From: a virus
Lineage: Duplodnaviria > Heunggongvirae > Uroviricota > Caudoviricetes
DNA length: 64,000 nt
Reading direction: 5' to 3' (one strand)
Virus record (IMG/VR): IMGVR_UViG_2744054576_000007
Location: 1 to 64,000 of that record
The notes beneath the pieces are model-generated. The model was not told the DNA's origin and did no database searches. It saw only the letters and a list, made by a program, of their open reading frames with translations. Shown piece after piece: positions 27,535 to 60,689 of this stretch. The position numbers and the translations under genes were made by a program. Position 1 is the first letter of the stretch, and every line of letters begins with the position of its first letter.

Positions 27535-27548
27535 AGAACGTTTGTTCT
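27535..27548 (-). promoter_or_regulatory. Cheo/LexA-type SOS box AGAACGTTTGTTCT (GAAC-N4-GTTC)
   Basis: Perfect dyad. Minus-strand promoter -35 TTGAAT (27575-27580), 17-nt spacer, -10 TACACT (27552-27557). Box lies 3 nt downstream of the -10 and upstream of the ribosome-binding site of the 27134..27526 gene. Confidence 0.55.
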
Positions 27549-32029: not shown

Positions 32030-33568
32030 TTATATATTTTTGACTAAAATTTCGTTTACTAATTCTATAAATCTATCACCTTCTATAATCTCACTATTAA
32101 AATCTGCACCTAATACATTTAAATGTGATAATGTCTTTTCTAAACCGTCAAACTCTACTGCAAATGGTTCAATGATATTACTTGGTCTTTGGCGAAATGC
32201 ACCAATTTTGTTTTTCATAAAAAACCACTTACCATAAATATTGTCCTTTTCTTCAACCAGCAATAAGTTAAACCCCAGATCACTCTGAATATCAAAGTAA
32301 CCCCAAGCAAGTATCAGTTGGTCTCTAAGTTTGGGGCGTACAACAACCTCAGTTCTACTTTCCCAAAAATCATCTTTTCTAGTTTTGACAAAATCTTTAT
32401 CATACAGTACTCTCAGTCTAATTTTGACTCTTTTTTGTGAGGGTAAACGAAGCTCCAAATTGATGCTATCTCTTTTTAGATCATTGAACTCATCTAAAAT
32501 CATTTTTGAACCAGTATATTTAGTATTGAACTCATTCACATAATCTTTTAGTGGCTCATAAATATGTTCTTTAAATTGATAGTTAATTCTTTTTACATGA
32601 TCCTGTTGTTCGCTTTCTTCTTTTTGTTTTAAAAGTTGCTGAGTCTTGAGCGATTCATCTTTCACAACCTTAACATTGATAAGATTATCAATTAAACTCG
32701 TTACGGAAGTTAAAGGTGTTTCATCTAATCCAATATCTCTCTCAATCTCTTCCCAGTTTTTATAGCGCGCGCTAATATTTTTTTCAATCATCTTATTGAT
32801 GACTTGTACAATACTGTTAGTAATGCCCGGATTAATGCGTTTTATTGGAACTGCGTTTTGAAAAGTATGAGCTTCCTGCCACATAGTCATATCAGCCTCA
32901 TTTTTTACTTCATAAGGATGTCTAAGTGTGGCTAACTCATAAAACAAGATTCCCATTGAATAGATATCATTTTGGATTGTATTCTTTTCGCTTCTCCATC
33001 TCTCTGGAGCCATATATTTAATATGACCAACACCTTTGAAAGTGAGTTGCCTAGTCCCTTCTGTTGCAACTTTAGCCAGACCAAAATCAGCAATTTTTAG
33101 TGTTCCCTTATCAATTAGTATATTATCTGCTTTTATATCCCTATGTACCAAGAGACTATTTATATGTTTCATTCCCTGAATTAACTGACCGTAAAACTCT
33201 CTCAATAGATCATTTGAAAAGAAAACACCTTCTTCTTTTTGCCTATTTAAATAACTCATCAATGTTCCTTGATTTGCATATTCCATAATTAAATAAGGTG
33301 GTAAATTGGGGTACTTATCTTTGTGTACGTAAAAGTATTTTATTGTGTTGGGATGAGAAACTTTTGTTGCCATTTGGCATTCATTAATAAATGTTGCATA
33401 GGCTTCTTGAGTGGGGAATGTTGTTGGCAATGTTTTTAAAGCAAAGATACATTTATCTGATTTCCTTTGTATCTTAAAAACAAAACCAAAGTTCCCATTT
33501 CCAATCATTTCAATTACCTCATACTCCACTTCGGATTCATCAAATACAGTAACACCCTGAGCAATCAT
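32030..33568 (-). CDS. eukaryotic-like Ser/Thr protein kinase with a C-terminal domain of unknown function
   Basis: Gly loop IGNGNFGFVF, catalytic-Lys context ALKTL, HRDIKADNILI, DFGLAK and YMAPER are all present. About 220 C-terminal residues have no recognisable motif. Confidence 0.85.
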   Translation of the reverse strand: MIAQGVTVFDESEVEYEVIEMIGNGNFGFVFKIQRKSDKCIFALKTLPTTFPTQEAYATFINECQMATKVSHPNTIKYFYVHKDKYPNLPPYLIMEYANQGTLMSYLNRQKEEGVFFSNDLLREFYGQLIQGMKHINSLLVHRDIKADNILIDKGTLKIADFGLAKVATEGTRQLTFKGVGHIKYMAPERWRSEKNTIQNDIYSMGILFYELATLRHPYEVKNEADMTMWQEAHTFQNAVPIKRINPGITNSIVQVINKMIEKNISARYKNWEEIERDIGLDETPLTSVTSLIDNLINVKVVKDESLKTQQLLKQKEESEQQDHVKRINYQFKEHIYEPLKDYVNEFNTKYTGSKMILDEFNDLKRDSINLELRLPSQKRVKIRLRVLYDKDFVKTRKDDFWESRTEVVVRPKLRDQLILAWGYFDIQSDLGFNLLLVEEKDNIYGKWFFMKNKIGAFRQRPSNIIEPFAVEFDGLEKTLSHLNVLGADFNSEIIEGDRFIELVNEILVKNI

Positions 33569-47015: not shown

Positions 47016-47092
47016 TGGTGGGTCTTGAGGGATTTAAACCCCCGACCAATCGGTTATGAGCCGACCGCTCTAACCAACTGAGCTAAAGACCC
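47016..47092 (-). tRNA. tRNA-Met (anticodon CAT; could also be initiator or lysidine-Ile type)
   Basis: Manual cloverleaf fold. Acceptor GGGTCTT/AAGACCC, D-arm GCTC-AGTTGGTTA-GAGC, anticodon stem GTCGG/CCGAT around the loop CTCATAA, T-arm GGGGG-TTTAAAT-CCCTC, discriminator A, encoded CCA. Confidence 0.75.
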
Positions 47093-47820: not shown

Positions 47821-47834
47821 AGAACATTTGTTCT
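47821..47834 (-). promoter_or_regulatory. Cheo/LexA-type SOS box AGAACATTTGTTCT
   Basis: Perfect GAAC-N4-GTTC dyad. Located 10 nt downstream of a minus-strand promoter: -35 TTGCAT (47869-47874), 18-nt spacer, -10 TATAAT (47845-47850). Confidence 0.55.
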
Positions 47835-48356: not shown

Positions 48357-48476
48357 TTATTTTAATTCTTCAGGCACTGGTTCACCGCATACCAGCGTCC
48401 AACTAGCCAGATTCACTTCAGCTACGGTCAGCATCGTAAAAACGAATCCAACTAACATAATCAATTTGCTTTTCAT
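48357..48476 (-). CDS. agrD: AgrD-like autoinducing-peptide precursor (39 aa)
   Basis: Not in the track. Sequence MKSKLIMLVGFVFTMLTVAEVNLASWTLVCGEPVPEELK. N-terminal amphipathic/hydrophobic leader, a single Cys, and a C-terminal PVPEELK that resembles the LamD/AgrD tails IPDELRK and VPKELT. The ATG overlaps the AgrB-like stop (ATGA). Confidence 0.5.
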   Translation of the reverse strand: MKSKLIMLVGFVFTMLTVAEVNLASWTLVCGEPVPEELK

Positions 48477-49012
48477 TCTTCCTTTTCACCTCCCTTCAGG
48501 CGAATAAGAAGAATGCTTTGTACTAATATAGCTAGATTGGATATTGGATGGTTTATTAAATAAAATATTGAAACTAAAAACAATGAAATAATTTTAAACC
48601 ATTTATAATTCTCTTTTTTTACTTTCGTTTGATTTTGTATATCGCTTGGTGAGTAAATTAGAACTAAGAGCAAACTAACTATGAACATTATAAAAGTATG
48701 TGCAGTAAAATAGTAGCCAAGTTTAGAAATAAGAATTATCATTACTGTCGAAAAAATGATGCACTTTTCGGGAGTTTGAAAGTGAAACCCACCCGAAAAT
48801 ATTCTTAATAGTGAGAACCCAAGTATCGCCACCAAACTTTCTTTTAAATTGCCAAAAATTAGAGAAAACAATACTATCAAAAGAATTGGTATGGTATTTG
48901 TAATTATGAATTTTAAGGCATATCGGATGATCCCATACGAAGGTAACTCATCAGGATATTTATTTTTTAAGTGGTGGCTCACCCTATCAACAAAATGATC
49001 AATTATTCTCAT
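48473..49012 (-). CDS. agrB: AgrB-like membrane cysteine endopeptidase (AIP-processing enzyme)
   Basis: 179 aa, polytopic. LRIFSGGFHFQTPEKC places His and Cys with the same H-x7-C spacing as the S. aureus AgrB catalytic H77/C84 (RRHAHGAHAPSSFWC). Confidence 0.55.
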   Translation of the reverse strand: MRIIDHFVDRVSHHLKNKYPDELPSYGIIRYALKFIITNTIPILLIVLFSLIFGNLKESLVAILGFSLLRIFSGGFHFQTPEKCIIFSTVMIILISKLGYYFTAHTFIMFIVSLLLVLIYSPSDIQNQTKVKKENYKWFKIISLFLVSIFYLINHPISNLAILVQSILLIRLKGGEKEE

Positions 49013-49751: not shown

Positions 49752-50744
49752 TTATTCTACTTCAAGCACTTTTGGATATATTCTTGTTATTGTTTCTACA
49801 TTCAAAAAGTCTTTTGTGTACATTGTTGTATAAAATATTTCTCCATCTTTACTACCCACATTAAACTTTTTGCTTATTTCGTGTATATCGCTTCTTTCCA
49901 ACTTACCTTTTTTATCAATGTAAATGTCCTTTGCCATTTTTAACATTCCTGAATTTCTTATGTCTACAGGAGATAGTTTCTCCATATTCAATTTTGCAGC
50001 AAACTTTGTAATGGTTTGCGATATAAGCGTCTGCTTAACTTTTTCATCTTTAGTGCTCTTTATAATATATGAGCTGTCTTTAAGAGCACTATTTTTTTTG
50101 TTACTGAGACTTCCTTCTCCAAAATTTGAACTATAAGATGTCTCTTCATCAGCTCTTAGCATAGCTTCCAAAAGAAATTCACTAACAATTATTTCACGAT
50201 TTTCCACTTCCCCATATCGACCAACGTTTGTTAATTTTACTGTTCTAGTTGCTTGGTCTATATCTTGCCTTTTTAGATTCCTAATTTCAGAACATTCTCG
50301 TCCCATAATGCCTTCAAATATACTTTGGATTATAACAATATCTCTATTACTATCAATTTGACCAAGCGCTAACTCAAGATCGTCATCTCTTATAAGAATC
50401 TGCTTTGGAATAAACTTTTCGTAAAATTCTTTTCCATTAACAACATCCAATGGATTCAGGTTGTCAGCTCTAAGATCTTGAGAAATAGCCCACTCAATAT
50501 ATTTCTTAATAATTGATCCATATATAGTGGCTGAACTTAACTTATTGGGTGCCAGTAAATACATAACCTCTTCGATTTCAGACAGACTAAAATTGTACAA
50601 ATCTTTGTTGTACTTCATCTCAACTTTGCTTGCTCGTTTTAATTTACTTTCATAATTACCTCTTGTTGCTTTTCTATATCCATCTAAAAACCTTTGTTTT
50701 ATATCTGGATTATATAGATTATCTCCATATATACGGTTCATCAA
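49752..50744 (-). CDS. tyrosine-recombinase/integrase-like protein (divergent; catalytic box II degenerate)
   Basis: N-terminal SAM-like core-binding region. Box I GIMGRECSEIRNLKRQDID (R present). Box II reads VDIRNS instead of HxLRH. Candidate Tyr in EIFYTTMY. Confidence 0.35.
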   Translation of the reverse strand: MMNRIYGDNLYNPDIKQRFLDGYRKATRGNYESKLKRASKVEMKYNKDLYNFSLSEIEEVMYLLAPNKLSSATIYGSIIKKYIEWAISQDLRADNLNPLDVVNGKEFYEKFIPKQILIRDDDLELALGQIDSNRDIVIIQSIFEGIMGRECSEIRNLKRQDIDQATRTVKLTNVGRYGEVENREIIVSEFLLEAMLRADEETSYSSNFGEGSLSNKKNSALKDSSYIIKSTKDEKVKQTLISQTITKFAAKLNMEKLSPVDIRNSGMLKMAKDIYIDKKGKLERSDIHEISKKFNVGSKDGEIFYTTMYTKDFLNVETITRIYPKVLEVE

Positions 50745-50758
50745 TAAGACACCTCTTG

Positions 50759-52078
50759 TTATTTTATAGTGCGCTCAAAATATTTAATAAGTTCTCCCTG
50801 TAATTTCTTGTTGTCATATATTCTCTTCGATTCAAGAATTTCAATCAAATCACTATCTTCAAAATCGATCGCATCTATTACACTCTTCAAGCTTTTCAAT
50901 TCTCTATTCTCATCATAAAAACGTTTAGCAATAACCGTATACCCAAGGAACATAAAAGGATTGTTAATATAAGTGTGTTTATTGGGATTTTCAATAAATT
51001 CGTCGTAATAAAAGCCAATTAAATAACCAAAAAATTTAATTAAATATTCTGAGACTTCTCTGTACTCAACATAATTAGTTGGGTTAAATGTTTTTTCAAT
51101 TCCGAATGACAAAATACTAAAAGTTGTAAGTTGACCAACTTCTTTATTTGCCTTTCTGCTAGAAGCTATTCTAATCCCTCTTAGTTCACTAGTTGGATTA
51201 TTTTGCAATTCTTTTACCACGTTATCTGACTTCTTTTCCGCTTGCAGTTCTTTTCTTCTTTCCTTGCTCAATGGGTTTATGGTATTTATTTGACCAAAAT
51301 ATTGCTCTGCTGTGGTGTTGTCATATACTCTTATTGAAAGAGGAGATACAAAATGAATGTCTTCATTTGCGTTTAAAGCTTTAATTTGACCCTGGAATCG
51401 ATGATATCCATCGAGAATAGAAATTATACTTTTTTCGTTTATTGTGAGAGTATAATTTTCTTTATCATATGTCACAGGTTGGTGTTCGTATGCGAATACA
51501 TTAAAAGTAATTGTATCGGCAAGATAGCTTTGATTTAGAATTTTTTGAGCTATTTTTTTCACACTCGTTTGGTTAACAATGGGTGACTCCACTACACCAT
51601 CGCGAGTATTACCTTTGTATCTCATACCACGTTGGGAGCGTGGGTCATAATTAATTAATTGAGAATTGAACATTTGTACCAACATCTGTATAGTAATTTT
51701 TGTGGAATAAGATCTTTCATCTATTTGTATTACGTCTTCAAAAGTAATAGGCAATTTTAAATAATCTTTTTGATAGATCAATTTAATGTTTTCTTTTGCT
51801 TCGTTTATTTCATTATGGCTAAAATAATCCATTGCATCTATTATTGTATTACCAAGAACACTTTGCAAAACTTCTGTAATCACACATATAAGTGAAATAT
51901 CAGTATCTTGTAACAGTTTTGTGTTAATTATTATTTTATTATATTCTCCGTATGGAACTCCCAATGCACTCAAACGATCATTAATTTTTAAAAGGCTTTT
52001 CTTATCATTTTTATTTGATTCAACAATTTCAGTTAGACGCTGTTCTAATTCGCTTCTCTCTTTTTTCAATATCGTCAC
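50759..52078 (-). CDS. DUF262/ParB-like (GmrS/DndB-type DGQHR-like) domain protein
   Basis: NYDPRSQRGMRY (QR motif) and ISILDGYHRFQG (DGQQR/DGQHR-like motif). 439 aa. No HNH/DUF1524 C-terminal motif seen. Confidence 0.45.
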   Translation of the reverse strand: MTILKKERSELEQRLTEIVESNKNDKKSLLKINDRLSALGVPYGEYNKIIINTKLLQDTDISLICVITEVLQSVLGNTIIDAMDYFSHNEINEAKENIKLIYQKDYLKLPITFEDVIQIDERSYSTKITIQMLVQMFNSQLINYDPRSQRGMRYKGNTRDGVVESPIVNQTSVKKIAQKILNQSYLADTITFNVFAYEHQPVTYDKENYTLTINEKSIISILDGYHRFQGQIKALNANEDIHFVSPLSIRVYDNTTAEQYFGQINTINPLSKERRKELQAEKKSDNVVKELQNNPTSELRGIRIASSRKANKEVGQLTTFSILSFGIEKTFNPTNYVEYREVSEYLIKFFGYLIGFYYDEFIENPNKHTYINNPFMFLGYTVIAKRFYDENRELKSLKSVIDAIDFEDSDLIEILESKRIYDNKKLQGELIKYFERTIK

Positions 52079-54324: not shown

Positions 54325-54507
54325 ATATGCTCTCCATGATGTTGTCTATTATGCCGTTAATCTGATAGAATAAAATGACAAATTACTCCCTCTACAAAAG
54401 TAGGGAGATTTTGTTATGCCTTCTTTATGGAACGAAATTCGTTCCACTTGCTCTTAATTTATTATAAAAGGGGTTATTTTACATGTCAACTGCTTTTTTG
54501 GTGAAAT

Positions 54508-54729
54508 ATGTGGTGGTTTGAAATTACACTATCTCATATATTAGATAGAAAGGGTATTAGTAATAGGGAGTTGGCGCGCAGAACTGGCATTAGACCTGCA
54601 ACAATAAATAGCCTATGCAATAACACTGCAAAACAACTATCTTTCGACAACTTGGCTACTATATGCGAAGTCTTGGATATAGATCTTGATGAGATAATCC
54701 TTTTACATAAAGAAGAGAAACGGGATTAG
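54508..54729 (+). CDS. XRE/Cro-like HTH regulator
   Basis: NRELARRTGIRPATINSL HTH. GGTGA ribosome-binding site. 73 aa. Plus strand, diverging from the minus-strand genes across a region that contains palindromes. Confidence 0.6.
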   Translation: MWWFEITLSHILDRKGISNRELARRTGIRPATINSLCNNTAKQLSFDNLATICEVLDIDLDEIILLHKEEKRD

Positions 54730-54741: not shown

Positions 54742-55128
54742 TTATCTCATTGCCAATGAAACTGATAATGCATCCACAATTTCATGACTATACTTATCTG
54801 GAAGTTCGGTAATTTTAAAATCTAATTGATCTTTGGATATAGTCATAATTTGTTCCAGCAAGATGATGCTATCGCTATATAGTCCTGTGTCTGTTCCACT
54901 TACTTTTACATGAGTAGGCATTTCTTTTTTTACACGTGATGTTACAGGAGCCACTATAACTACTGGAGAATACTTGTTTCCCATATTGTTTCCAATCACC
55001 ACACAAGGTCTTTCACCACTTTGTACGCTCCCTTTATTACTCCCTAAATGTACATTCCACATATCCAAGCGTTTAATTTCTTTTGTCATTCGATCCATTG
55101 CTACCGCCACTATGTAATCACTCCTCAT
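54742..55128 (-). CDS. mazF: MazF/PemK/EndoA-family endoribonuclease toxin
   Basis: SGERPCVVIGNNMGNKYSPVVIVAPVTS...PTHVKV...DSIILLEQIMTISKDQL...IVDALSVSLAM aligns closely with B. subtilis EndoA (NdoA). The likely start is the GTG at 55110 (GAGGAGTG ribosome-binding site) rather than the track ATG. Confidence 0.75.
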   Translation of the reverse strand: MRSDYIVAVAMDRMTKEIKRLDMWNVHLGSNKGSVQSGERPCVVIGNNMGNKYSPVVIVAPVTSRVKKEMPTHVKVSGTDTGLYSDSIILLEQIMTISKDQLDFKITELPDKYSHEIVDALSVSLAMR

Positions 55129-55225
55129 TAACTATTGTTTACTTCTCATCTTATTTTTATTTTTGCTACTAGTTAAATTCTATTATGTACTTTTCTAAAC
55201 TTATCTTTGCTCTTTCTATATGTAA

Positions 55226-55254
55226 TTATACTAACAAAAATAATTAAATACAAG
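55226..55254 (-). promoter_or_regulatory. sigma-A-type promoter of mazF
   Basis: On the minus strand: -35 TTGTAT (55249-55254), 17-nt spacer, -10 TATAAT (55226-55231). Confidence 0.5.
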
Positions 55255-55256
55255 AT

Positions 55257-55270
55257 GGAACGTTTGTTCT
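55257..55270 (-). promoter_or_regulatory. Cheo/LexA-type SOS box GGAACGTTTGTTCT abutting the mazF -35
   Basis: GAAC-N4-GTTC dyad 3-4 nt upstream of the mazF -35. The same dyad occurs at 27535 and 47821. Confidence 0.5.
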
Positions 55271-55375
55271 GTCAAGTTTTTTTCGTATCATACGAATATT
55301 TCCGTGGCTAAGTGCATAATTCTATTGACAACTGGATATACATAGTACTAAGGATATTTTCAGGGAGGAATATAG

Positions 55376-55894
55376 ATGCGACAAGACGCTTGGTCTCGAT
55401 CCGATGACGATCTGCTAGCTAAAACAGTGATTAACTATATAAGCAGTAACAAAACTCAATTAACTGCATTTCAGGAGGTTGGGAGTGAACTGAACCGCAC
55501 AGCGGCAGCCTGTGGATTTAGGTGGAATAGCGCCCTGAGACATAAATATCATAGTGAAATAAAAAAAGCAAAAGAACAAAGAAGGAATAATAAGAGAAGT
55601 CCAAAAAACAGAATCAATAACACAAAAATTCAAAAGACCGATATAAACTTTATGGACGAGATAGACAATGCTATCCAAGCCCTAAATAAATTAAGGATTG
55701 AATATCTAAATATGCAAGAAACCATACGTACACAGAATAACAAAATAACTGAATTAACTATAGATATCCAAGAAAGCAAAAAAGAAGATCGACAACCTAT
55801 TGCAAGTGACGATTTAGACACTTTACTTAAAATTTTACACAGAGCGGATCAGATACAAAAAAACATGTCTCAATACAAAGAACCTGCCATTTAA
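55376..55894 (+). CDS. rsfA: RsfA-family (prespore-specific regulator, Myb/SANT-like) transcription factor
   Basis: MRQDAWSRSDDDLLAKTV...TQLTAFQEVGSELNRTAAACGFRWNSALRHKY is near-identical in pattern to the B. subtilis RsfA N-terminal domain. AGGGAGGAA ribosome-binding site. Confidence 0.7.
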   Translation: MRQDAWSRSDDDLLAKTVINYISSNKTQLTAFQEVGSELNRTAAACGFRWNSALRHKYHSEIKKAKEQRRNNKRSPKNRINNTKIQKTDINFMDEIDNAIQALNKLRIEYLNMQETIRTQNNKITELTIDIQESKKEDRQPIASDDLDTLLKILHRADQIQKNMSQYKEPAI

Positions 55895-55910
55895 TTGGCA
55901 GGTTTTTTAA
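55881..55910 (+). terminator. rho-independent terminator of the rsfA-like gene
   Basis: AACCTGCCA-tttaat-TGGCAGGTT followed by TTTTTT. Overlaps the stop codon. Confidence 0.65.
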
Positions 55911-56352
55911 TAAAAATTATATTTTACTACAAAAATGAAAATAGCCGAGCATCCGACCAAAGATAACGGCTATTTTCCGTAATTTCTTACTTAATTAGTG
56001 CTGCGCTATGCCTTGCGGCTTAACTAGCTCTTATTTTACTGCTAATACTTCGATCAGTCAACGAAAGTAGCTGATTCGTTTAAAAGTTGCATGATCAATT
56101 CACTTGCCTTCAACCCTTCCCCAATACCAATTAGATACACAGCCTTTCTAAGTGCTTCTCTTGTCTTCTCGTCCACTATTGCTGCTTCCCCTTACTTGTA
56201 TGTATTTTATCCATTGCACTCATGGAGGATGTGCTTAACGTGTTCTAACACATCCTCTAATTTCTTACCACACTTCTCACAATACATTTTGCAATTTCAC
56301 CTATCTTATTATTAAATCTACACGTCACACTGTCATCCTTAAAAAATCTAAA

Positions 56353-56665: not shown

Positions 56666-56968
56666 TCAAGAGAGTATTACCAATTGCGTATCATTATGTT
56701 TAAGTTTTTCTTTGAACATGTCTAAGGTTTCTTTGTTTCTACTAATTCGGGTTACGTCGGTCACAATAACAGCGTCAACTTCTGATAGATTATTGATAGC
56801 CAATTTTAAATCCACATCATTTGCAACCAAAACAATGTGAACAAGATTGATACCTTCTGACATTGTATACTGATTTATTTTACTTTTCTGTTCGTCTATG
56901 CCCCATTCAATAGACGATCTTACGATTGCCATAGCCTTCATGATTTTATACTCCTCTACTATTCGCAA
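56666..56968 (-). CDS. serine recombinase (resolvase/invertase) catalytic-domain-only protein; truncated remnant
   Basis: MKAMAIVRSSIEWGIDEQ and DAVIVTDVTRISRNKETLDMF match the resolvase N-terminal catalytic domain. No HTH domain. Only 100 aa. Confidence 0.45.
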   Translation of the reverse strand: MRIVEEYKIMKAMAIVRSSIEWGIDEQKSKINQYTMSEGINLVHIVLVANDVDLKLAINNLSEVDAVIVTDVTRISRNKETLDMFKEKLKHNDTQLVILS

Positions 56969-57654: not shown

Positions 57655-58041
57655 TTACCAGCTACCAGAATACTTGTTCACCGTTATAGGATAATGGTAT
57701 ATCTCAATAGCCTCATCAATAAATCCTCTCCGTTGAGCTGCCAACAAAGTCTCATACATATTCTTTCGTCCCACTGGGTTGTCAGTATGTAAATAGATAT
57801 TATCAGCCCTCAATCCATGCTCACAAAAGTACTTCACCAAGTCATATCCGTTAGGTAGCTCTTTACCATCCACATCTTCGCCTAGATCATGGTCTAACGT
57901 AAGAATGCCGACACTTCTGGTTTCAAGGATATGTATTGCTTCATAGTATGTACGAGCCACCACAAAGCCATCTGGACAGTCTCTGAGGTCGTCAACATAA
58001 AGGTTGACCTTATTTGTCATAGTCGCATCGCCTTCCTTCAA
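57655..58041 (-). CDS. stand-alone CheY-like receiver (REC) domain protein
   Basis: 128 aa. VNLYVDDLRD (acidic pocket), LTLDHDLGE (phospho-acceptor Asp position), LHTDNP (Thr position) and GRKN (Lys position). Confidence 0.45.
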   Translation of the reverse strand: MKEGDATMTNKVNLYVDDLRDCPDGFVVARTYYEAIHILETRSVGILTLDHDLGEDVDGKELPNGYDLVKYFCEHGLRADNIYLHTDNPVGRKNMYETLLAAQRRGFIDEAIEIYHYPITVNKYSGSW

Positions 58042-59870: not shown

Positions 59871-60083
59871 CTACAACATAATGTATTGATTGCCATCATC
59901 CATAAATGCCACCAACAATGACTTCCTTTTAATTGTCCTAGCTTTAAAGGCGACAATGCGTGAAACATCTACGCGGACGACACTTAAGGACACCTCATTA
60001 CGGGGCATGATGTTAGCTTCAATCCGGTGGAGACCCAATTCCCGGAAGGCCAGATCGGCCACACAACGCACGGCTTCCGTCAT
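59871..60083 (-). pseudogene. GNAT (RimJ/RimL-like) acetyltransferase remnant, 5'-truncated and degraded at the 3' end
   Basis: AVRCVADLAFRELGLHRIEANIMPRNEVS matches the GNAT C-terminal region (LGLHRIEA..PxN). No N-terminal half is present. Local GC is far above the window average. Confidence 0.5.
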
Positions 60084-60230: not shown

Positions 60231-60689
60231 TCATATAGCAAGAAAGTAATGGTAATACACAGAATCTCGGACATAACCATTTCGTTCGTACAGCGACTGG
60301 GCTGTTTGATTCTCCACACCGGTGGATAACTGAATTCCTTTGGCACGTACCAGCTTGGCATACTGCTTGGCTTCGTCCATCAACAACTGCCCTACCCCGT
60401 TACGACGGTACTGCGGGGCGACATACAGATCATTGAGCAGCAGCAGCCGCTGCATGGAAATGGATGAGAAGAGCGGATACAGCTGTGTAAAACCAGCCGA
60501 TCTACCCGAAGCTGCTTCCTTCGCATAGAGTATCACGGACTCCTGGTGCTCGAACCGTTCGAACAGAAAGTCCCGCGCGCCTTGCAAGTCTGAAGCCTGC
60601 CCATAAAACACCCTGTATTCATTAAATAATTCCGCTACTAAATCCAAATCCCTAATCGTAGCCTGACACACAATTATAGAGTTATCCAT
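60231..60689 (-). CDS. GNAT-family N-acetyltransferase (complete)
   Basis: 152 aa. Acetyl-CoA motif A region LYVAPQYRRNGVGQLL (Q/RxxGxG/A). About 50% GC versus ~33% for the window. Confidence 0.7.
   Translation of the reverse strand: MDNSIIVCQATIRDLDLVAELFNEYRVFYGQASDLQGARDFLFERFEHQESVILYAKEAASGRSAGFTQLYPLFSSISMQRLLLLNDLYVAPQYRRNGVGQLLMDEAKQYAKLVRAKGIQLSTGVENQTAQSLYERNGYVRDSVYYHYFLAI

Follow-up and report, generated by a model that had tools for sequence, protein, structure and literature searches.

GerR (YlbO) and RsfA of Bacillus subtilis are paralogous sporulation regulators, the former a mother-cell repressor of the sigmaE regulon and of other genes, the latter a forespore regulator of sigmaF-controlled genes (PMC517825). 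It is known that phages of spore-formers carry sporulation-type genes, and members or relatives of the RsfA family have already been described in phages of spore-forming Bacillales: phage G possesses four of them (gp631, gp84, gp85 and gp321), some of which were detected in virions, and a manipulation of sporulation was proposed (PMC12484599); RsfA-like factors were also noted in a comparison of jumbo phages (PMC7824862), and gp22 of Basilisk-like phages is another example (PMC6145125); depending on the case, the authors see these proteins as manipulators of host sporulation or as phage transcription factors. The other system of interest here is the lysis-lysogeny region of SPbeta and phi3T, which embeds the arbitrium genes aimRPX, the sroA-F operon with the MrpR/SroF repressor and the antirepressor Sar. 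In these phages LexA boxes regulate induction genes and LexA controls Sar (10.1101/2025.11.27.690993); in phi3T, host MazF is reported to take part in the lysis-lysogeny decision (PMC10769878). In this work, we analyzed a stretch of 64,000 nucleotides (the window in the following) of a virus belonging to the Caudoviricetes (IMG/VR record IMGVR_UViG_2744054576_000007, positions 1 to 64,000), which corresponds to positions 33-64032 of the 583-kb Paenibacillus jamilae contig LQQX01000159.1, and in particular the gene at 55376-55894, whose product, the RsfA-like protein, adds a divergent copy of this family in a predicted SPbeta-like prophage of Paenibacillus to those already known from phage G and Basilisk.

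The RsfA-like protein and its prophage

The protein (N-terminal sequence MRQDAWSRSDDDLLAKTV...TQLTAFQEVGSELNRTAAACGFRWN) matches the NCBIfam model of the RsfA family, TIGR02894, with 134.1 bits (E=4.7e-39; cutoff 126.45), the alignment running over residues 2-161 and over positions 3-155 of the 161 of the model and including the C-terminal helical region. The Pfam model Myb_DNA-bind_6 is also matched (1.6e-7), DUF7615 remains under its cutoff (23.8 bits vs. 27), and PHROGs contains no matching family. This profile search is in agreement with an earlier note on this DNA, which had assigned the gene product to the RsfA family from an N-terminal motif (RQDAW..DDDLLA...TQL.AF.EVG..L.RTAAACGFRWN) that corresponds exactly to the translated open reading frame (ORF). 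The protein has in common with GerR and RsfA the same TIGR02894 model over its whole length, the Myb-like head, the invariant recognition helix and the C-terminal coiled coil; the family C-terminal consensus DY..L..I..RAR is represented by DLDTLLKILHRAD, and, like the GerR-like clade of chromosomal proteins, it has the signature RWNS. It differs from them in its length (172 aa vs. about 190-260 aa), in its clade-specific K(E/K)PAI tail and in the location of its gene, which lies in a 33% GC prophage beside SOS and lysogeny genes and not in a chromosomal sporulation context; chromosomal family members are 33-40% identical to it over the full length. The scores obtained with the GerR/YlbO equivalog models NF010535 (87.0 bits vs. 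a cutoff of 257) and NF010534 (102.3 bits vs. 345) fall short of both cutoffs, the chromosomal GerR-type protein L049 reaching 233 bits on the former. Judged by these profiles, the protein is a divergent member of the RsfA family and an orthologue of neither GerR nor YlbO.

The AlphaFold2 model of the protein (mean pLDDT 81.8) consists of a Myb-like three-helix domain, a basic helix, a disordered linker and two further helices (Table 1), and the predicted C-terminal coiled coil probably serves dimerisation. A sequence search of the PDB revealed no relative, and the best Foldseek matches (Rap1 Myb, SANT and homeodomains), all of them non-significant (E>0.5), fit the fold and are not evidence alone. 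Twenty residues are invariant in 49 prophage and chromosomal family members; they include R41, T42, A44, A45, C46, G47, F48, R49, W50, N51 and R55 of the predicted third (recognition) helix, so that the segment AACGFRWN..R is the same in the prophage protein and in the chromosomal members of the family. Because this helix is invariant, the DNA specificity of host RsfA/GerR is probably common to the prophage protein, which would bind the same kind of sites.

As for the element embedding the gene, its GC content stays between 31 and 37% across the window, and the minus strand carries nearly all genes. The gene set comprises a DnaB-like helicase, a primase, a RecJ-like nuclease, a tRNA-Met, a Ser/Thr kinase and a repressor of the MrpR/SroF type. 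In a tblastn search, 95% of the MrpR-like repressor aligned with phi3T, SPbeta-like phages, Psychrobacillus phage Perkons, Geobacillus virus E3 and Brevibacillus phage Sundance at identities of 28-32% (28% in the case of phi3T and SPbeta-like phages), and, as in SPbeta and phi3T, a DndB-like gene lies upstream of the repressor gene in a multi-gene operon. On the basis of this gene content and of the relatives of the repressor, the element can be classified as a large, low-GC SPbeta-like prophage of Paenibacillus, that is, of an endospore former. A megablast of 57 kb of the window against 50,697 phage records yielded only a similarity confined to the tRNA-Met gene, and the element has, therefore, no cultured close relative among them. 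The presence of the repressor, helicase, primase and nuclease genes bears out the phage origin that the earlier note had ascribed to the regulator; the endospore-forming host that it had proposed is also supported, since an identical protein is annotated in Paenibacillus jamilae.

Twelve proteins share 62-100% identity with the RsfA-like protein, ten of which are named by NCBI as belonging to polymyxa-group Paenibacillus, and the next match drops to 39%. The scan of IMG/VR revealed 23 loci with a homologue (29-83% identical) at the same position; the viral contigs concerned, all predicted prophages, measure 22-218 kb, and 22 exceed 50 kb. The regions retrieved around the homologues (6.5-12.5 kb each) have a GC content of 32-36%. 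In 18 of these 23 prophage loci the gene directly upstream is a divergent MazF/PemK-like one, and in 20 such a gene is found within 2 kb; an XRE-family gene is convergent with it in 13, the MrpR-like and DndB-like genes are found within 6 kb in 16, and a cREC gene is located 1-3 kb downstream of the RsfA-like gene in 12-13. Three loci (L014, L019 and L021) harbor the RsfA-like gene without the PemK-like one. Among 80 RsfA-family loci from species-representative genomes, a PemK neighbour occurs only once (L055, P. dendrobii), in what is itself a prophage of the same type. The conserved partners of the gene are thus a LexA box, the MazF/PemK-like gene, the XRE gene and the MrpR/DndB-like repressor operon, and not the presumed receiver or the kinase; in this synteny the RsfA-like gene is, as far as comparative evidence goes, a fixed component of the lysogeny-control region in a lineage of SPbeta-like Paenibacillus prophages.

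In the neighbor-joining (NJ) tree the prophage copies are placed apart from two chromosomal clades, the rsfA-type (RWNA) and the gerR-type (RWNS, including L049) one. The core prophage copies appear to form a clade of their own with moderate support (76 of 100 bootstrap replicates), the subgroup of the window being recovered in all 100 replicates; a strict monophyly of all prophage copies is absent from the p-distance NJ tree (38 of 100). The host presumably carries its own RsfA-family copy as well; a search with a chromosomal Paenibacillus protein gave none from P. jamilae or P. polymyxa among the 120 relatives listed out of 3,054, all of which came from other species. As regards described phages, the only match in the 50,697 records was phage G gp631 (44% identity over the N-terminal 75 aa, that is, the DNA-binding head), no match to Basilisk gp22 was obtained at E<=1e-5, and no RsfA-like gene was found in SPbeta, phi3T or cultured relatives. 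Phage G and Basilisk are virulent or jumbo phages, with several copies in phage G, whereas the window harbors a single copy at a fixed position of a temperate SPbeta-like prophage. A full-text search of the literature retrieved no description of this prophage clade or of its context.

The transcription unit and the divergent promoter region

The RsfA-like gene, whose strand is opposite to that of the bulk of the phage genes, is an insulated unit that is predicted to be transcribed alone. Its terminator is strong (z=-6.08; none of 200 shuffled sequences folded as stably), has the stop codon (55892-55894) within its loop and, given the symmetry of its A-run and U-run, may work in both directions. 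The ribosome-binding site and the terminator that the earlier note had indicated are both present, and both are strong. Its statement that the gene has its own promoter stands in part: a conserved sigmaF-like element with a perfect TTGACA does precede the gene, but a sigma-70 scan found no acceptable promoter upstream of it, because no acceptable -10 sequence lies downstream of the TTGACA.

The alignment of 19 loci revealed four conserved blocks in the 247-bp intergenic region (55129-55375). The most conserved of those upstream of the RsfA-like gene is G[CAT]ATA-N15-GGATA[TA]A[CTA]AT, with a spacing of exactly 15 nt in every subgroup, and it is kept in L023 despite the loss of TTGACA in that locus. 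It resembles the sigmaF-type promoters of the chromosomal rsfA genes, which possess GTATA-N15-GGnnAnnnTA upstream, a sequence that agrees with the sigmaF consensus illustrated for csfB (PMC4383634). With a position weight matrix (PWM) of the sigmaF type, built from 28 chromosomal rsfA-type upstream sites, the element of the window scores 11.1 bits, the background of best scores per 130 nt having its 99th percentile at 7.9 and its maximum at 13.9; on both strands of the window only four positions reach at least 11.1 bits. The promoter of the RsfA-like gene is thus sigmaF-like and can be read as one of the sigmaF type, with a sigmaA -35 box overlapping it. A sigmaE-type reading (GCATAAT-14-GATATACA, according to what we take to be the sigmaE consensus) is about equally good and not separable from it. 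The sigmaG reading, for which we assume the consensus GHATR-N18-CATXHTA, does not fit, CATAGTA being 22 nt from GCATA, and neither does a sigmaK promoter.

The same intergenic region embeds other signals. The conserved block ATTATA (55225-55230) reads TATAAT on the minus strand and is likely the -10 sequence of the PemK-like gene. The perfect palindrome between the two divergent promoters is partly conserved in the alignment, being kept only in the closest relatives of the window, which makes it a candidate subgroup-specific operator. The motifs TTGACN4GGATA, GGAACN4GTTC and GNATA-N15-GGATA are each confined to this region and occur nowhere else in the window, and the idea of a phage-wide operator was rejected on this account. 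Lastly, a CTAT(T/C) motif recurs upstream of chromosomal rsfA-type, gerR-type and prophage genes (loci L025-L104 and L002-L024): CTATT was found in 23 of 54 chromosomal rsfA-type genes (8.5 would be expected), where it often has the form AA[AT]CTATT and follows the promoter and precedes the ribosome-binding site, TCTATC in 16-18 of 22 gerR-type genes, and cTATTGACA in the prophage genes. As a weak hint, the motif could be an autoregulatory site of the family, or mere promoter sequence.

Neighbouring genes of the lysogeny-control region

The MazF/PemK-like gene is divergent from the RsfA-like one. Its product is closely related to B. subtilis EndoA/MazF (structure 4mdx, 2.2e-23), and in this alignment it keeps the Arg and Thr that we take to be catalytic in the B. 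subtilis enzyme; no canonical MazE-like gene was found upstream of it in the ORF list. The LexA box of the intergenic region abuts TGTCAA, that is, TTGACA on the minus strand (55275-55270). Its core, GAAC-N4-GTTC, is the Cheo/LexA box of Bacillales; the longer form GGAACN4GTTC occurs once in the window vs. 0.21 expected, and the core three times vs. 0.53 expected, all three copies being placed shortly before the start of a gene on the minus strand (Table 1). Given the placement of the box and the documented LexA control in SPbeta-like phages, the leftward MazF/PemK-like gene is probably under SOS control. The two other genes behind such boxes encode proteins of 130 and 126 aa that have no Pfam match, and the latter, four ORFs downstream of the MrpR-like repressor gene, could be the counterpart of the antirepressor Sar of phi3T/SPbeta. 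LexA boxes upstream of small leftward genes and a MazF-type nuclease in the same region are thus further likenesses to SPbeta and phi3T; a difference is that the MazF-like gene is phage-encoded in the window. No full-length AimR was found among the window proteins scanned, which included part of the small ORFs; the 73-aa XRE protein scores 24.9 bits on the AimR helix-turn-helix (HTH) model, the cutoff being 70.

We compared the divergence of these genes across loci through Spearman correlations of pairwise identities, uncorrected for shared ancestry. The coefficient is 0.30 for RsfA-PemK and 0.01 for RsfA-XRE, 0.64 for PemK-XRE, 0.65 for RsfA-MrpR, 0.55 for RsfA-DndB and 0.76 for MrpR-DndB. 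This pattern suggests that the PemK-like and XRE genes form an exchangeable cassette, which may be an unconventional toxin-regulator one, and that the RsfA-like gene follows the repressor operon or the phage backbone.

The 128-aa protein encoded downstream of the RsfA-like gene deserves attention since the earlier note had interpreted it as a CheY-like receiver of the Spo0F type. Our analysis does not support this interpretation. Indeed, the protein matches cREC_REC (PF20274) with 103.6 bits (cutoff 27; positions 2-86 of 88), its sole Pfam match; no Response_reg (PF00072) match exists at E<=0.1, and no response regulator was retrieved at E<=10 from 177,635 distinct PDB sequences. The Asp at the phospho-acceptor position, which the earlier note had proposed to check, is indeed present (LTLDHD), and the motifs YVDDLRD and LTLDHDLGED (DD and LDHD) are invariant in 13 homologues; this does not discriminate a cREC protein from a phosphorelay receiver, because the cREC family also keeps these aspartates. 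According to Iyer et al., cREC is a divergent Rec domain that is absent from two-component signalling; they connect it with RNA ligases and with cyclic nucleotides derived from NAD, and predict it to be a cyclic-phosphate phosphoesterase (PMC7824862). From its profile, the protein is a candidate cREC enzyme and not a phosphorelay intermediate. It keeps the conserved aspartates as the cREC proteins of jumbo phages do, and differs from them in that the domain makes up the protein by itself and is encoded by a temperate prophage. Neither an RNA ligase nor an NAD-processing gene was identified beside it, the two flanking ORFs having no Pfam or NCBIfam matches. Its gene is one of the best conserved in this region: the protein is 73-96% identical across 12-13 related loci, even where the RsfA-like proteins are only 35-40% identical. 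The cREC domain is predicted to open 2',3'-cyclic phosphates, MazF-type cleavage leaves ends of this kind, and a functional link with the nearby MazF-like gene is conceivable; the divergence of cREC and PemK is uncorrelated (0.11). The Ser/Thr kinase that the earlier note had reported is present, the C-terminal 240 aa containing no PASTA or other Pfam domain.

Other observations concern the surroundings of these genes. A perfect-consensus sigmaA promoter drives a leftward operon of about seven genes that ends with the DndB-like and MrpR-like ones, and the perfect palindrome TGGAACGAAATTCGTTCCA, located just downstream of its -10 sequence and divergent from the XRE gene, is likely an operator. 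An AgrB-family gene is located two genes downstream of the MrpR-like repressor gene, a hint that the phage, whose group is better known for the peptide signalling of arbitrium, carries a function of the Agr type in peptide processing or signalling. A 100-aa ORF corresponding to the N-terminal part only of a serine resolvase, conserved in three other loci (L005, L008 and L014), is apparently either the remnant of a truncated gene or a fragment that stands alone, and the 70-aa ORF that adjoins a GNAT acetyltransferase gene looks like a gene fragment.

Table 1. Position of the features discussed in the text within the 64,000-nt window; for the regions of the RsfA-like protein, residue numbers are given.
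Feature	Position	Strand	Details
RsfA/GerR-family transcription factor gene	55376-55894	+	ATG start, 172 aa; ORF, profiles, AlphaFold2 model
Predicted Myb-like three-helix domain	residues 8-57		pLDDT 93-96; AlphaFold2
Predicted basic helix	residues 59-78		AlphaFold2
Predicted disordered linker	residues 78-87		AlphaFold2
Predicted long helix	residues 92-138		AlphaFold2
Predicted last helix	residues 142-164		AlphaFold2
Ribosome-binding site GGGAGG	55363-55368	+	7 nt before ATG; GGAGG/GAGG kept in homologous loci
Conserved promoter region	55314-55343	+	GCATA (55314-55318), 15 nt, GGATATACAT (55334-55343); spacer contains TTGACA (55325-55330)
Perfect 7-1-7 palindrome TTCGTAT-C-ATACGAA (TTCGTATCATACGAA)	55282-55296		midway between the divergent PemK-like and RsfA-like promoters
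LexA (Cheo/SOS) box GGAACGTTTGTTC	55257-55269		conserved in about 16 of 19 aligned loci
Intrinsic terminator	55877-55912		13-bp hairpin (stem 55881-55904) and U-run; -19.2 kcal/mol
MazF/PemK-like endoribonuclease gene	54742-55128	-	Pfam PemK_toxin 1e-24
XRE-family HTH gene	54508-54729	+	73 aa; Pfam HTH_26 2.5e-17; convergent with PemK-like gene
SigmaA promoter TTGACA-17-TATAAT	54489 to 54461	-	perfect consensus
Perfect palindrome	54428-54446		
DndB-like gene	50759-52078	-	Pfam DndB; precedes MrpR-like gene, end of leftward operon
MrpR/SroF-like integrase-fold master repressor gene	49752-50744	-	Pfam MrpR_N_CB 2e-24, MrpR_C_cat
AgrB-family gene	48473-49012	-	Pfam 3.9e-27
tRNA-Met (CAT anticodon)	47016-47092	-	matches tRNA genes of large Escherichia/Vibrio phages, 92-98% over about 45 nt
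GAAC-N4-GTTC boxes	27536-27547, 47822-47833, 55258-55269		minus strand reads GAACAAA[CT]GTTC
LexA-boxed gene, 130 aa	27134-27526	-	
LexA-boxed gene, 126 aa	47280-47660	-	
cREC single-domain protein gene	57655-58041	-	128 aa; Pfam PF20274 (cREC_REC) 9.3e-30; phrog_1479
Eukaryotic-type (Hanks-type) Ser/Thr protein kinase gene	32030-33568	-	Pkinase 1.1e-49, residues 16-270; phrog_2361
Resolvase-like ORF	56666-56968	-	100 aa; Pfam Resolvase 1.8e-5, profile 11-99 of 145
GNAT acetyltransferase gene	60231-60689	-	152 aa; Acetyltransf_1/7/10 (precomputed annotation)
ORF adjoining GNAT gene	59871-60083	-	70 aa; weak Acetyltransf_3 match only

Possible roles of the prophage regulator

A remaining question concerns the role that an RsfA-family factor might play in a prophage. 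The hypothesis that we favour, tentatively and with a probability of roughly 0.45, is that the prophage expresses a DNA-binding regulator of the RsfA/GerR type, probably made during sporulation and probably directed at RsfA/GerR-type sites of the host genome, of the prophage or of both. We infer its timing of expression, its targets and its physiological effect as follows. The resident prophage would produce the factor in sporulating host cells, as suggested by the conserved promoter elements, since these are similar to the sigmaF-type promoters from which chromosomal rsfA genes are expressed in the forespore, and the overlapping sigmaA -35 box might add vegetative expression. The Myb-like head, with the invariant recognition helix of the family, would contact DNA and the coiled coil would dimerise; the factor might then bind host RsfA/GerR-type sites, retuning early sporulation genes, and/or it might keep the SOS-inducible MazF-like nuclease and lytic genes silent in the developing spore.

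Several points weigh against this hypothesis. The protein scores far under the GerR and YlbO equivalog cutoffs (87 vs. 257 and 102 vs. 345), and the prophage clade appears to lie at the edge of the RsfA family because its TIGR02894 scores straddle the cutoff: six other members of the clade reach 118.6-123.1 bits and are under it, L024, whose placement in the clade is unstable, reaches 133.0, and the chromosomal members 195-234. We know of no DNA motif for the RsfA family. As for the promoter, the training sites of the PWM were themselves chosen by a regular expression, the 11.1 bits of the element are below the leave-one-out median of those sites (16.0), and the sigmaF-like -10 sequence ends with AT, the usual ending being TA. 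Moreover, 18 of 24 upstream regions keep the perfect sigmaA -35 box TTGACA, so that vegetative or lytic-cycle expression is equally possible. Finally, what is conserved around the gene belongs to SOS and lysogeny control and not to sporulation, and the divergence of the RsfA-like protein tracks that of MrpR (0.65) and DndB (0.55), which fits a role internal to the phage.

According to such an alternative, the main rival of the favoured hypothesis, the protein would be a phage-internal regulator of the lysis-lysogeny/SOS module (the PemK-like gene and/or the sro-like operon), the DNA-binding domain of the RsfA family having been reused in a generic phage transcription factor with nothing specific to sporulation. 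We regard this as possible, if on the whole rather unlikely. It would account for the fixed place of the gene by the repressor operon (with the PemK-like gene divergent in 18 of 23 loci and the MrpR/DndB-like genes within 6 kb in 16), for the conserved LexA box and divergent promoter elements gathered in one 247-bp intergenic region and, through the use of sigmaA, for the conserved TTGACA. It is also in line with the decision modules (arbitrium, the sro operon and the LexA-controlled Sar) that SPbeta-like phages place here and with the view of Iyer et al., who class the RsfA-like expansion of phage G as phage transcription factors (PMC7824862). However, an invariant recognition helix in prophage and chromosomal proteins would be unexpected with phage-specific operators, the absence of the intergenic motifs from the rest of the window leaves no phage-wide regulon visible, the LexA box is positioned for the leftward gene and not for the RsfA-like one, and the correlation with MrpR and DndB may reflect shared phage ancestry only.

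The tight and conserved adjacency to a PemK-like gene whose product keeps the presumed catalytic Arg and Thr of MazF, the lack of a canonical MazE-like gene upstream of this toxin and the combination of a DNA-binding domain with a toxin-binding tail that is common among antitoxins might suggest that the RsfA-like protein is the antitoxin or immunity partner in an unusual, divergent toxin-antitoxin system. This appears very unlikely to us, and we reject the idea because the covariation is lacking: the RsfA-PemK correlation is weak and PemK covaries with XRE instead, to the point that PemK proteins 98-100% identical accompany RsfA-like proteins 69-71% identical, and PemK proteins 40% identical accompany RsfA-like proteins 79% identical. 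In addition, the genes are divergent and not operonic as expected for a cognate antitoxin, three loci do without the PemK-like gene, and the full-length architecture is common to chromosomal RsfA-family genes, only one of the 80 loci (L055) having a PemK neighbour. Less probable still is the model of the earlier note, in which the Ser/Thr kinase would join the RsfA-like factor and a Spo0F-like receiver in hijacking the phosphorelay or developmental signalling of the host. The three genes do occur in the same prophage, the receiver-fold protein retains its acidic pocket residues and its gene recurs 1-3 kb from the RsfA-like one in 12-13 of 23 loci; nevertheless, this protein belongs to cREC, a domain reported to be absent from two-component systems and linked to the processing of RNA ends and NAD-derived cyclic phosphates (PMC7824862), and it has neither a Response_reg match nor similarity to solved response regulators. 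Furthermore, the genes between the cREC and RsfA-like ones differ by locus, the correlation of their divergence is moderate (0.42), the kinase gene is located at a distance of 22 kb and its product contains no PASTA or other sensor domain, and no histidine kinase or phosphotransferase was found among the proteins scanned. The three-gene module is therefore not supported, and we found no link between the kinase and the RsfA-like gene.

Returning to the favoured hypothesis, of a regulator made during sporulation, it can be extended to the whole region: the place that arbitrium occupies in SPbeta would be taken here by the XRE gene, the SOS-boxed MazF-like nuclease and an RsfA factor with a sigmaF-type promoter, which would silence the prophage in the forespore. 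This broader scenario is speculative and we give it a low likelihood. If it were true, the prophage would read the developmental state of its host: the RsfA-like factor would be made in the forespore upon commitment to sporulation, the prophage and its SOS-inducible nuclease would be silenced, and the phage would be carried through dormancy and germination; host forespore genes may also be retuned via the shared RsfA/GerR operator specificity.

The analysis also corrects the picture of this region, in that the receiver-fold protein encoded nearby is a candidate for a cREC enzyme and the phosphorelay reading, attractive as it is, is unsupported. What is new with respect to the phages already known to carry RsfA-like factors is a temperate, SPbeta-like lineage in which a single factor of the RsfA/GerR type is predicted to be a fixed, insulated unit at the lysogeny-control region, accompanied by well-defined and conserved cis elements, namely a sigmaF-like promoter, a LexA box and divergent promoters. 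A predicted recognition helix that is the same as in the host regulators, together with these cis elements, makes a clean experimental system, which could show whether a prophage couples its own silencing, or the development of the host spore, to the sporulation programme.

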